A stretch of 64,000 nucleotides of DNA from Candidatus Thorarchaeota archaeon. Lineage in GTDB: Archaea; Asgardarchaeota; Thorarchaeia; Thorarchaeales; Thorarchaeaceae. Shown here piece by piece: positions 31,533-37,599 of this stretch. The translations under genes were made by a program, and so were the position numbers. Positions within the stretch are counted from its first letter, which is position 1, and every line of letters starts with the position of its first letter. Location: contig JBHLRP010000007.1 of NCBI GenBank assembly GCA_048882485.1, positions 1-64,000 of the forward strand, in the 5' to 3' direction. A model generated the notes under the pieces. That model had not been told where the DNA came from, searched no databases, and saw only the letters and a list, made by a program, of their open reading frames with translations.

Positions 31533-31904
31533 CTAATATCCCCATTCCTGTCCCAGTCTCTGTCTATACCAACGTTGGCCTCGCTTTGTGAGCGAGTATT
31601 TACCTCCAATTTCCTGGAGGTGCCCCAATTCAATCATCCTTTCGATAACATTGAAGAGCTTGTCTTCCGATGCTCCTGTCGCTTTCTGAAGCATCAGAAA
31701 ATCCATTTTGCCTTCTCTTTTCAAATGCTGGGCAATATCAAACTTACCAACTGCTTTAGTTTCTTTCCTTGATACTACCTCTCCACAATTGGTACAGAGC
31801 AGGTCACCTTTGAGGTCGTCTCTTGCTACCTCCTTGCTCCCACATATGGGACAGGTCGCCTTTGAGAATCTAAGGCTTCTTCTATGTGACATTGCTTTGA
31901 CCAC
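31533..31904 (-). CDS. TFIIB-type zinc ribbon + winged-helix protein
   Basis: CPICGSKEVARDDLKGDLLCTNCGEVV followed by a wHTH ending in KYSLTKRG. Confidence 0.8.
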   Translation of the reverse strand: MVKAMSHRRSLRFSKATCPICGSKEVARDDLKGDLLCTNCGEVVSRKETKAVGKFDIAQHLKREGKMDFLMLQKATGASEDKLFNVIERMIELGHLQEIGGKYSLTKRGQRWYRQRLGQEWGY

Positions 31905-31993
31905 GCCACTCTGGTTCGGCTTTCTTGATAAAACTAACGAAGTGACATTGAGTGCGGAACAGGCCCATGACCATTATGTCACAAGAACCTCAG

Positions 31994-32500
31994 TCATGAG
32001 TCATCAGCGACAAGGCGTCTGAAGAATGCTTCATAGTCTATCTCAAATCCTACCCTAGTGCCTGGCCGCACACGAGTACCTGTGTCGTCAAACTCGATGT
32101 AGCGTTGTGCAGCCAGTTCTTTCAGATCTAGTCTCACACCTCTTCTGGTCTTGCGTCTGAATTCCCGGACTCGATTTATCGATACCCATCCGCCTTCCTG
32201 ATAGGCGAGAGTGATGACTACTAGAAGAGTAGCTGCAAGTCGATCTGGAAGAACTGACTCTTCCAACAGTTGCTCGCTTCGTATTCTTGTATCAAGGTAA
32301 AAGACATGGTCGATTGGATTATGTCTAATCATAAGTCCGACTTCTGAAAGTCTTTTGTCAAGTGCGCCTAATCTTTGGAATAGAATATGCTTTCCTGTAT
32401 CTTCGGGGAAACCAAGGGCACTGAGCATGTCCTCCACTCCCGCTCCGATAGGATTTCCTGAGCGGGTGAGAAGTCTCATTAGGATTATGTATTCGTTCAA
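31994..32500 (-). CDS. KITE-like tandem winged-helix protein (ScpB/Nse1/Nse3-like)
   Basis: Two predicted wHTH halves with a C-terminal RVRPGTRVGFEI; overlaps the kleisin stop. Confidence 0.6.
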   Translation of the reverse strand: MNEYIILMRLLTRSGNPIGAGVEDMLSALGFPEDTGKHILFQRLGALDKRLSEVGLMIRHNPIDHVFYLDTRIRSEQLLEESVLPDRLAATLLVVITLAYQEGGWVSINRVREFRRKTRRGVRLDLKELAAQRYIEFDDTGTRVRPGTRVGFEIDYEAFFRRLVADDS

Positions 32501-36100: not shown

Positions 36101-36566
36101 GAAGTGCATTGATCCGTTCTTGAGGCATGAACACGAGGGTGTTGTCAATATCAAGGCCAAGTGAGCTGACAAGGAATCTCAATTCTGCAGCTTTCACCCG
36201 TTTTCCGTCTATGTATGCTTTAGGGATTCCATCACGATCAATACGGCGGAGAAAAGAGTGACTGATTCCTCCATTATTCACATTCACCTCAACTTCGGCT
36301 GAATTGGCTCCATGCCTCACGAAATCGCTCCACTTGGAGTAGCGTTCCTCTCGTTGGTTTGATCCAAGTGCAAACTTGATTGCGTGAAATACTGAGGTCT
36401 TTCCAGAGCCATTTGGTCCTATGATGACTGTAAGTCCAGGATCAAAGCTAACAACTCCCTCGTAGAAAGAGAGGAAGTTCTTGAGCCTGACTGAACCAAT
36501 GTGGACCTTGGCCTTGCTCACGCTTTGGTTCCTCCTACCTTCCCATGATTCTCCGTAGTCTGTCAT
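33153..36566 (-). CDS. SMC ATPase, SMC5/6-/coalescin(ClsN)-like
   Basis: Walker A [8 protein letters not shown], Q-loop FMPQE, coiled coils, central hinge (VNGPLVELL...ALEAVF), signature GSGGE and Walker B/D-loop [10 protein letters not shown]; probable GTG start at 36521 after GGAGG. Confidence 0.9.
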   Translation of the reverse strand: [1137 protein letters not shown]

Positions 36567-37599
36567 TGTTCTTCTTTGCCCTCAGCAATCGAGTCAATCG
36601 ATCTTCTGGAGTTCCCTTCATCAAGAATGGATACTCACTAAGGTATTCAAGGTCCTTTGAAGACAAAGGAAGACTTGAGTTCAATGCCTCTATCACTCTC
36701 TGAGTTTCAGCATAATTATCACCGACAGCTAATAGGTAGAGTTGGTCCAGAAAATCATCAGGATACTCAGGTTCGACAGTATCTAAGCTGGGCACTTGTC
36801 TTCCCTGAATTCGAGTCAGTAAGTTGTCGAACGCCCTTTTTCTTCCCACTGGGAGAACTCCGCTTTCTTCGATCATCCGTTCTAGCTTCTCTCTTGGAAC
36901 TTCCTCCTGGACCTCCTGCAAAACCAGTTTCACAGCGAGATGCTTAGCTTCGCTGAAACTCCAACCTTCGCTGAGTTCTGCAGCATCTGTGGGACTTAGG
37001 TCTTCTCTCCCCTTGAACGCCGCTTCAAACAAACGTACTCGGTCATCAAGAGTGGCCTTTTCCGAAACGTACGCATGGTCAAAGAGAGACAGAAGCTCGG
37101 CATCCATTTCTTGTGGAGATGAAGTGGAAGCTACCAGAAGCACTTCATCTGTGTCCCAACTAACACGTTCAGACTCGATTCCCAGCAGAGCTGATTCCCT
37201 TGTATGGGCTGGGGCAATATATTCAGCTCGATCAATGTATAGTATAGAGGGGGCATTCCTTTTCGCAAACTCGAACCAGAAACTAATCGATTCTCGCACT
37301 CTGTCAGGCCGTCCAAGGATTCTTTCCAGCCTAGGACGTACAATGTTGATTGGAATCTCTCGTGACAAGTAGTGCACAAATGCTTCGAAATCTGTGCCTA
37401 TATTTCCTATCAATAACACCTTTCCGCCAAAAGCTAATCCTTTCTTTCTCAAGTCGTCGCTCAGGTTGCCAATATGTGTAATTGACTCATGAAAGGTTCT
37501 AGCCATCTCTCTAATGGAATATTGGCCTAGGCGGTCTTTTTCTAGATCCTCGGGCCTACTCAGGATGACCGTATCTGCATAGATGTTGTCTTCTCCCAC
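36535..37599 (-). CDS. Degenerate classical-clade AAA+ domain protein
   Basis: KVLLIGNIGTDF at the Walker A position and AKRNAPSILYIDRAE at Walker B, plus VLLVASTS...MDAELL and EGWSFSE; the catalytic K and E are missing. Confidence 0.7.
   Translation of the reverse strand: MGEDNIYADTVILSRPEDLEKDRLGQYSIREMARTFHESITHIGNLSDDLRKKGLAFGGKVLLIGNIGTDFEAFVHYLSREIPINIVRPRLERILGRPDRVRESISFWFEFAKRNAPSILYIDRAEYIAPAHTRESALLGIESERVSWDTDEVLLVASTSSPQEMDAELLSLFDHAYVSEKATLDDRVRLFEAAFKGREDLSPTDAAELSEGWSFSEAKHLAVKLVLQEVQEEVPREKLERMIEESGVLPVGRKRAFDNLLTRIQGRQVPSLDTVEPEYPDDFLDQLYLLAVGDNYAETQRVIEALNSSLPLSSKDLEYLSEYPFLMKGTPEDRLTRLLRAKKNNDRLRRIMGR

Follow-up and report, generated by a model that had tools for sequence, protein, structure and literature searches.

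A probable accessory SMC5/6-related complex of a Thorarchaeon with a fourth member derived from a Cdc48-type AAA+ protein

In the genome of a Candidatus Thorarchaeota archaeon (family Thorarchaeaceae, GenBank assembly GCA_048882485.1), we studied the first 64,000 nucleotides (nt) of contig JBHLRP010000007.1, hereafter referred to as the window. Between positions 31533 and 37599 it carries five genes, co-oriented as an earlier sequence-only reading had stated and all of them on the minus strand, for an AAA+ protein, an SMC-family ATPase, a kleisin, a KITE subunit and a small protein with a zinc ribbon and a winged helix (Table 1). We consider it likely that this block specifies an accessory SMC5/6-related SMC complex in which a derivative of a Cdc48-type AAA+ protein constitutes a fourth member beside SMC, kleisin and KITE.

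With regard to the three-subunit core, an "SMC5/6-related aSMC" has been defined in archaea (Yoshinaga & Inagaki 2021, PMC8665677) and operons encoding an SMC5/6-related SMC, an Nse4-related kleisin and an Nse1/3-related kite have been reported from archaea of the TACK and Asgard groups (van Hooff et al. 2024-25, bioRxiv 10.1101/2024.01.07.573240), so that the core as such is not new here. The system in the window agrees with the published one in being a second SMC beside canonical Smc, in having its own operon of SMC, kleisin and kite genes and in occurring in Asgard archaea. One Nse1/3-related kite and an SMC5/6-related SMC have been tabulated for a Thorarchaeaceae genome (bioRxiv 10.1101/2024.01.07.573240); as thorarchaeal genomes each contain exactly one non-ScpB KITE of the window's family, this kite is taken to be an orthologue of the protein of 168 amino acids (aa) studied here. 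An Nse4-related kleisin is not listed for that genome, whereas we identify one in the 219-aa protein. The papers describe three subunits, and when their text and supplements were searched neither an AAA+ nor a zinc-ribbon nor a MoxR-vWA gene was found mentioned; for the AAA+ gene this holds for the preprint of van Hooff et al. including its supplements as well as for the Asgard SMC5/6 and archaeal SMC, kleisin and kite papers that were searched. What we found described nowhere is the AAA+ partner of Cdc48 type, which is conserved and occurs in a series of active to dead forms.

Genes for SMC, kleisin and KITE

The genes for SMC, kleisin and KITE are joined by the overlaps of four base pairs that had been read from the sequence, the SMC stop and the kleisin start sharing ATGA and the kleisin stop and the KITE start sharing TTGA. 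At its other end, the longest SMC open reading frame (ORF) overlaps the AAA+ gene, the stop codon of which (TAG) occupies positions 36535-37, by 32 nt. A GTG codon at 36521, located 13 nt past this stop, is preceded by AGGAGG and yields a length that fits the 1122-1124 aa of the orthologues, and it was taken as the SMC start; it is probably the start codon in use rather than that of the longest ORF. The nearest homologues of the 219-aa and the 168-aa proteins are all labelled Thorarchaeota or Promethearchaeota. Chance or misassembly is ruled out as the origin of the arrangement since synteny of the block was recovered in dozens of genomes.

Membership of the SMC protein in the SMC superfamily is established by its Pfam matches to SMC_N (1.1e-40 over residues 23-1118) and to SMC_hinge (28.4 bits, cut-off 22.5). 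The three head motifs quoted in the sequence-only reading, LDEID being among those read, are all present in the translation, and the motifs of the C-terminal head ([16 protein letters not shown]..TP) presumably resemble those of Smc5/6. The glycine-rich hinge end of condensin-type proteins, the absence of which had likewise been pointed out, is indeed missing when the sequence is inspected by eye, while the genome's canonical SMC family keeps this element ("...SGLITGG"); the SMC_hinge score is weak. Neither of the models for canonical Smc is reached, the SMC of the window scoring 277.4 bits with TIGR02169 (cut-off 729.4) and 252.4 bits with TIGR02168 (cut-off 567.35), and a BLASTP alignment with the organism's own canonical Smc is limited to the C-terminal head (33% identity). 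The latter protein is encoded on another contig, C25, where a gene for a 1196-aa SMC (855.5 bits with TIGR02169) is followed by genes for proteins of 238 aa and 186 aa, the second of which is a clear ScpB (116.6 bits). Because the genome possesses this canonical Smc-ScpA-ScpB operon, the SMC in the window is a divergent second paralogue beside housekeeping Smc-ScpAB. It is accompanied by its own kleisin and a non-ScpB kite, such that the complete SMC, kleisin and KITE set that had been proposed is present, namely as a second set separate from the condensin-type one.

The two small proteins do not match any Pfam family, including PF02616 for the kleisin (E <= 0.1) and PF04079 for the KITE, nor any NCBIfam family, and nothing meaningful was retrieved from the PDB when single sequences or profiles restricted to thorarchaeal sequences were used as queries. 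Family profiles derived from 14 Asgard loci were decisive. In hhalign comparisons, the kleisin family aligned with the canonical Asgard ScpA-like family (94.8% probability, E 5.5e-8, 186 columns) and the KITE family with the canonical ScpB family (92.3% probability, E 5.6e-7). With identities of only 16-18% to the canonical proteins, both are old paralogues and not ordinary ScpA and ScpB. Against the PDB, the kleisin profile matched four entries of the ScpA C-terminal winged helix on one region (top E-values 0.0034 and 0.012), while the broader KITE profile retrieved ScpB only at E 0.16. The structural model of the kleisin consists of N-terminal helices and a C-terminal winged helix and is confident only in the latter, as expected for a kleisin modelled alone; its best Foldseek matches are the ScpA C-terminal winged helix, CAP-H2 and Nse4, all of them weak (E >= 0.087). 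The AlphaFold model of the KITE (pLDDT 80.8) comprises two winged-helix domains and finds ScpB (1.9e-5), then Nse1/Nse3 (7e-4 to 1e-3) and below these MAGE, MukE and JetB in Foldseek. In a VIA search with the same model ScpB was the sole full-length match (Z 10.6), the remainder being mostly single winged-helix regulators. Its chain stops at residue 168, following the second winged helix, and contains no Cys/His cluster such as that of an Nse1-type RING. Profile and fold searches hence bear out what had been suggested from the sequence, i.e., the 219-aa protein is a kleisin and the 168-aa protein a tandem-winged-helix KITE.

Table 1. Genes of the SMC block and of the adjoining MoxR-vWA pair in the window.
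Feature	Position	Strand	Matches and remarks
Pseudo-AAA+ protein, 354 aa	36535..37599	-	PF00004 25.6 bits; dead Walker A/B; C-terminal helical domain of ~90 aa
SMC5/6-related SMC ATPase, ORF 1137 aa, ~1122 aa from probable GTG start	33153..36566	-	SMC_N 1.1e-40, SMC_hinge 28 bits
Kleisin, 219 aa; 214 aa if start is GTG at codon 6	32497..33156	-	Position, hhalign, weak Foldseek
Tandem-winged-helix KITE subunit of 168 aa, RING absent	31994..32500	-	AlphaFold model, Foldseek, hhalign
Zn-ribbon and winged-helix protein, ORF 123 aa, ~119 aa from probable ATG 31892	31533..31904	-	PF08271 32.8 bits
MoxR-like AAA_5 ATPase, 570 aa	37740..39452	+, divergent from operon	AAA_5 7.6e-13 and AAA_lid_2
HExxH and vWA (MIDAS) protein, MoxR partner, 572 aa	39467..41185	+	Motifs HHEIQH, DSSGS

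The AAA+ gene upstream of the SMC gene

The match of the AAA+ protein to PF00004 lies above the gathering score (21.2 bits), and its orthologues are publicly annotated as "ATP-binding protein" or "hypothetical". That it is catalytically dead, as read from the sequence, is confirmed by a Walker A motif of the form GNIGTDFE, which lacks Lys-Thr, and a Walker B motif of the form ILYIDR; at the same time, the gene is a conserved member of the operon. A survey of synteny across Asgard genomes, as had been advised on the basis of the sequence, showed that the AAA+ gene adjoins the SMC gene upstream in all 27 loci subjected to neighbourhood analysis, which stem from at least eight families, and that the order AAA-SMC-kleisin-KITE recurs in them, the genes mostly abutting or overlapping each other. 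These loci are assigned to Thorarchaeia (families f1 and f2), Jordarchaeales (f7), Candidatus Freyarchaeum (f19), Baldrarchaeia (f8), Lokiarchaeia (f9 as well as f23, i.e., Candidatus Harpocratesius), Candidatus Borrarchaeum (f17) and a family labelled Helarchaeota (f27). When the search was extended to 251 genomes across the phylum, AAA+ orthologue and KITE were found to occur together, and in the approximately 90 genomes in which both reside on one contig they lie 4-15 kb apart and, in all of these genomes except G089, on the same strand (manual reading).

The state of the P-loop differs between lineages. It is intact in Freyarchaeum (GRSGTGKT), in the Helarchaeota-labelled family (GPSGNGKT) and in Borrarchaeum and dead in Thorarchaeia, Jordarchaeales, Baldrarchaeia and Lokiarchaeia; all Thorarchaeaceae sequences feature a G[TS]DF-type loop, and in Jordarchaeales and Baldrarchaeia the AAA core is further eroded or partly deleted. 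A dead P-loop is the mark of the core clade. The best-conserved part of the protein is the C-terminal helical domain of approximately 90 aa. The origin of the family is apparent from the intact Freyarchaeum orthologue, which matches PF00004 with 76 bits, contains AAA_lid_3 and is closest to the AAA domains of Cdc48/p97, AFG2/SPATA5 and Rix7/NVL (E 2e-38), and the gene is a derivative of Cdc48-type, classic-clade AAA+ proteins. The family differs from these relatives in having a single AAA domain instead of a D1/D2 tandem, in lacking the N-domain and in carrying its own C-terminal helical domain, and the window's protein differs additionally by its dead catalytic motifs. A search of the protein atlas with the AAA+ protein retrieved nothing beyond a Thorarchaeota cluster of its own and clusters of generic AAA proteins, and in a representative library some dozens of clusters of full-length orthologues were recovered with the AAA+ profile before multi-AAA proteins took over.

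Freyarchaeum possesses the window's type of SMC, kleisin and KITE, with a canonical operon present in the same genome. The SMC of this lineage, annotated as 'AAA family ATPase', comprises only 832-835 aa (L044 10070-12577; L056 4915-7413) and presumably has a much shorter coiled coil. The SMCs following the AAA+ gene in Borrarchaeum and in the Helarchaeota-labelled family, on the other hand, are canonical-like (538 and 502 bits vs. 259 and 278 bits with clean hidden Markov models). As canonical-like SMCs are also preceded by the AAA+ gene, the linkage between AAA+ and SMC genes is older than the SMC5/6-like clade or at least not confined to it. The canonical-like protein is the only SMC found in Borrarchaeum (L047 4442-10292) and in the Helarchaeota-labelled family (L048 5912-12326), and the KITE encoded after it at these loci attains a higher score for the window's KITE family than for ScpB.

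Probable affinity to SMC5/6 and comparison with known systems

The relationship to eukaryotic proteins was assessed by reciprocal comparison of two profiles, A5 derived from AAA-linked SMCs and A7 derived from canonical Asgard Smc, with PDB chains (Table 2). Smc5 and Smc6 score far better with A5 than with A7, while SMC1 to SMC4 and Pyrococcus Smc score better with A7. In the SMC tree, a 99% branch has all AAA-linked SMCs on the same side. Within this group, the two thorarchaeal families f1 and f2, the two lokiarchaeal families and Jordarchaeales together with Baldrarchaeia form groups, while Freyarchaeum and then Borrarchaeum with the Helarchaeota-labelled family are placed nearest to canonical Smc. 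As the core clade follows taxonomy, it appears to have been inherited by vertical descent.

Table 2. Bit scores of PDB chains with the AAA-linked SMC profile (A5) and the canonical Asgard Smc profile (A7).
Chain	A5	A7
Yeast Smc6	220	83
Human SMC5	218	below 82 (lowest score among the matches listed)
Human SMC6	215	below 82 (lowest score among the matches listed)
Yeast Smc5	193	below 82 (lowest score among the matches listed)
SMC3	366	397-452
SMC2	348	448
SMC4	334	465
SMC1	280	409
Pyrococcus Smc head	331	698

An affinity of the window's SMC to SMC5/6 is thus favoured by the reciprocal profile scores and by published trees that recover an SMC5/6-related archaeal clade (PMC8665677; bioRxiv 10.1101/2024.01.07.573240). 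Several observations weigh against our reading of the block. Profile A5 is more diverse than A7, it contains the two canonical-like SMCs of Borrarchaeum and the Helarchaeota-labelled family, and in absolute score it still ranks SMC1-4 above SMC5/6; our own SMC tree was built without eukaryotic sequences. The PDB matches of the kleisin profile are ScpA entries with no Nse4 chain among them, Nse4 being met only as weak Foldseek matches (E 0.13), and the best fold match of the KITE is ScpB and not Nse1/3. Nor is the AAA+ gene confined to the SMC5/6-like clade, since there are two lineages in which the SMC that it precedes is canonical-like. In several genera of the Thorarchaeaceae, kleisin and KITE genes are separated by a gene for an MFS transporter on the opposite strand, sometimes together with further genes (up to ~11 kb; L034 3453-5869; L055 2580-6541; L054 3751-14563; L093 4795-6243), and in genome G011, which belongs to the window's own genus, no KITE was found at the locus. 

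The sequence-only reading had placed the SMC closer both to SMC5/6 and to the crenarchaeal ClsN/arcadin-4 proteins than to condensin. The profile scores speak for the first part of this proposal. For membership in ClsN or arcadin-4 we found no support; the arcadin-4 model (NCBIfam NF053563, Rkd4) yields 52.4 bits at a cut-off of 860 with a match confined to the N-terminal P-loop region. The ASRP model (NF045487) gives 133.3 bits, the cut-off being 300.

Eukaryotic Smc5/6 (Smc5-Smc6 with Nse4, Nse1/Nse3, Nse2 and Nse5/6) shares with the window's system the core of SMC, kleisin and KITE, the preference of Smc5 and Smc6 for profile A5 and the Nse1/Nse3/MAGE fold matched by the KITE. It differs in that the archaeal locus has a single SMC gene and a single KITE gene, so that both products presumably form homodimers, and in that the KITE lacks a RING and neither a SUMO ligase nor an Nse5/6 solenoid is encoded, a Cdc48-type AAA+ derivative being present instead. 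Smc-ScpAB is similar with regard to architecture, gene order and detectable homology of kleisin and KITE to ScpA-like proteins and ScpB; it is set apart by the low TIGR02169 score and the divergent hinge of the window's SMC, the lack of Pfam ScpA and ScpB matches, the additional AAA+ gene and the dispensability of the block. 

Proposed function, alternative explanations and neighbouring genes

The dispensability of the block is apparent from one genus of the Thorarchaeia (g3). Four of its five genomes (87-96% complete) lack KITE, kleisin, AAA-linked SMC, AAA+ and vWA genes, while the zinc-ribbon gene and canonical Smc are kept. An AAA+ orthologue was found in a single g3 genome, G208, the one that retains the SMC block (manual reading). 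At the g3 locus the zinc-ribbon gene abuts a NuoF/NuoG/Nfn-like cluster that is situated on the far side of the MoxR-vWA pair in the window. The genes were lost as one block that comprises KITE, kleisin, SMC, AAA+, MoxR and vWA and in addition an M14 peptidase gene (L091, contig G018:C7, 3561-11736; L092, contig G099:C59). Loss en bloc within one genus marks the system as accessory, a point that bears on any inference about what it does.

Motif states, synteny, homology, folds and gene content are established by the data above, whereas with regard to assembly, stoichiometry and cellular role we infer from homology to Smc-ScpAB and Smc5/6 that the heads of the SMC ATPase, presumably a homodimer, would be bridged by the small kleisin and that the kleisin would carry the tandem-winged-helix KITE, presumably as a dimer. 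The three proteins together would form a ring ATPase that entraps DNA or extrudes loops beside housekeeping Smc-ScpAB and that may represent a homodimeric precursor of Smc5/6. The AAA+ protein would have been catalytically competent ancestrally, as it appears to be still in some Asgard lineages, where it may act as an active remodeller of the ring. In the window it is a pseudo-ATPase of which the conserved C-terminal helical domain would be the part under selection, and it may serve as a regulatory or adaptor subunit, i.e., as a loader, an unloader or a modulator of the SMC ATPase. For the complex as a whole we favour a role in genome maintenance similar to that of Smc5/6, comprising repair, replication stress or the handling of DNA junctions. 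It is favoured over bulk chromosome segregation because the block is dispensable, being lost in some species that keep canonical Smc, and over defence because of vertical inheritance, the presence in a single copy per genome and the lack of a nuclease gene. Eukaryotic Smc5/6, of which less is understood than of any other eukaryotic SMC complex, is presumed to descend from the archaeal SMC5/6-related complex. A fourth, universally syntenic gene with natural active and dead variants would change what has to be reconstituted and imaged, and it offers a testable entry to the regulation of SMC rings before Nse5/6, Nse2 or HAWK proteins.

A complex consisting of SMC, kleisin and KITE alone, with the AAA+, zinc-ribbon and MoxR-vWA genes merely co-transcribed or co-located and the AAA+ protein acting elsewhere or decaying, is unlikely but deserves to be considered first. 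It would account for the erosion and partial deletion of the AAA core in Jordarchaeales and Baldrarchaeia, and, as the zinc-ribbon gene demonstrates, tight conservation as a neighbour is compatible with independence from the block. However, the AAA+ gene retains an open reading frame, its position at the SMC start and a conserved C-terminal domain across Thorarchaeia, Jordarchaeales, Baldrarchaeia, Lokiarchaeia and Borrarchaeum, and within genus g3 no orthologue of it was detected where the SMC block is missing. 

A function against plasmids or viruses appears quite improbable. Eukaryotic Smc5/6 and the bacterial SMC-family system Wadjet both restrict extrachromosomal DNA, and Wadjet/Smc5-6-like restriction of circular DNA had been offered as an option in the sequence-only reading. 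The dispensability of the SMC block, its patchy loss within one genus and the variable interval between kleisin and KITE genes in some genera would be in line with such a role. Wadjet (JetABCD) and MukBEF also combine an SMC-family ATPase with kleisin and KITE, and JetB and MukE are among the fold matches of the window's KITE. Yet the JetC model yields only 40.6 bits, those for JetA and JetB are unmatched, and the block contains neither a JetD-like nor any other nuclease gene. In PADLOC, the SMC met only generic ABC-ATPase models and the kleisin, the AAA+ protein and other proteins of the cluster met none, the only entry for the KITE being an unrelated weak one for Csx19 (E 0.0071). Furthermore, an SMC tree that follows taxonomy, syntenic flanks and one copy of the system per genome are unlike a mobile defence island, and the Wadjet-like reading found no support. 

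The idea that the genes encode the organism's ordinary condensin-type Smc-ScpAB, to which one could be led by Pyrococcus Smc heads as the best single-sequence PDB matches of the SMC and by ScpB as the best fold match of the KITE, is practically untenable and is already refuted by the TIGR02169 score and the true Smc-ScpA-ScpB operon on contig C25, to which the lack of PF02616 and PF04079 matches and the low identity of both small proteins to their canonical paralogues have to be added. 

Returning to the SMC5/6-related complex with an AAA+-derived member, a broader scenario can be put forward tentatively, although we regard it as doubtful: Asgard SMC complexes may ancestrally have used a dedicated Cdc48-type AAA+ motor for loading, unloading or remodelling the ring of SMC, kleisin and KITE, which became a structural pseudo-ATPase in the lineage of Thorarchaeia, Lokiarchaeia, Baldrarchaeia and Jordarchaeales at about the time when MoxR-vWA(HExxH) joined. 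If true, this motor would represent an undescribed class of SMC accessory factors among the prokaryotes most closely related to eukaryotes.

The zinc-ribbon gene had been regarded as that of a further partner subunit. Its product contains a TFIIB-type zinc ribbon (PF08271, cut-off 29 bits), the winged helix-turn-helix half giving only weak matches; eight orthologues are 47-80% identical, and the four cysteines are invariant in all of them. Full-length orthologues are encoded only in families f1 (61 of 65) and f2, in every case immediately downstream of the KITE gene, and elsewhere in the searched genomes the query meets only zinc ribbons of TFB. The KITE and zinc-ribbon genes are separated by approximately 90 nt and are therefore not coupled; a TATA-like TTTTATC located in this spacer about 35 nt upstream of the orthologue-type ATG (read by eye) suggests that the zinc-ribbon gene has its own promoter. 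The protein is specific to Thorarchaeia and persists where the SMC block has been lost and is therefore, contrary to the earlier view, no obligate subunit but probably a Thorarchaeia-specific neighbour and DNA-binding regulator. In the genomes with an intervening MFS transporter gene, KITE and zinc-ribbon genes make a separate unit.

The MoxR-vWA pair, for the second protein of which no Pfam match was obtained, adjoins the operon in Thorarchaeia, Jordarchaeales and Baldrarchaeia and resides elsewhere in the genome in Lokiarchaeia. In Jordarchaeales and Baldrarchaeia the pair is co-directional with the operon, its vWA gene extending into the AAA+ gene by an overlap. The vWA orthogroup occurs in families f1, f2, f7, f8, f9, f23 and f28, i.e., those with the operon containing a dead AAA+ gene, and was not found in Freyarchaeum, Borrarchaeum and the Helarchaeota-labelled family when Asgard genomes were searched. 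Families lacking the operon contributed a single occurrence of it (f22, 1 of 18 genomes), and in genus g3 it was lost together with the SMC block. Co-occurrence and co-loss may indicate that the pair is functionally linked to the operon in some way, a lead that draws on related genomes which are not independent of each other. In Candidatus Harpocratesius (L063 5761-6399; G209:C1:1716442-1718157) an orthologue of the HExxH-vWA protein is encoded convergently to, and adjoining, the canonical Smc operon. 

An ORF of 130 aa (31241-31633) that overlaps the end of the zinc-ribbon gene has no family match in Pfam or NCBIfam and is probably spurious, and Rfam searches of positions 28-42 kb of the window, including the long intergenic stretch 31254-31440, gave no match at E <= 0.1. 

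A scan for related loci identified at least ten in Asgard archaea, with no Thermoproteota relatives among the matches listed. One Thermoproteota genome, G357 (L118 1879-4989), contains a 590-aa SMC-like gene for which the AAA-linked profile gives 287 bits and the canonical one 138 bits and which is followed by kleisin and KITE genes of the window's type, no AAA+ gene being located upstream. Other Thermoproteota loci (L108, L110, L119) feature kleisin and/or KITE genes without an adjacent SMC gene. In Lokiarchaeia of families f9 and f23, a further SMC of 1483-1487 aa occurs that combines head motifs of the canonical type with an unusually long middle part (L070 5824-10275; L071 6141-10604; L072 382-4845). 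In f9 this long SMC appears to replace the canonical Smc of approximately 1200 aa, and Candidatus Harpocratesius possesses three SMCs, namely the long, the ~1200-aa canonical and the AAA-linked one.

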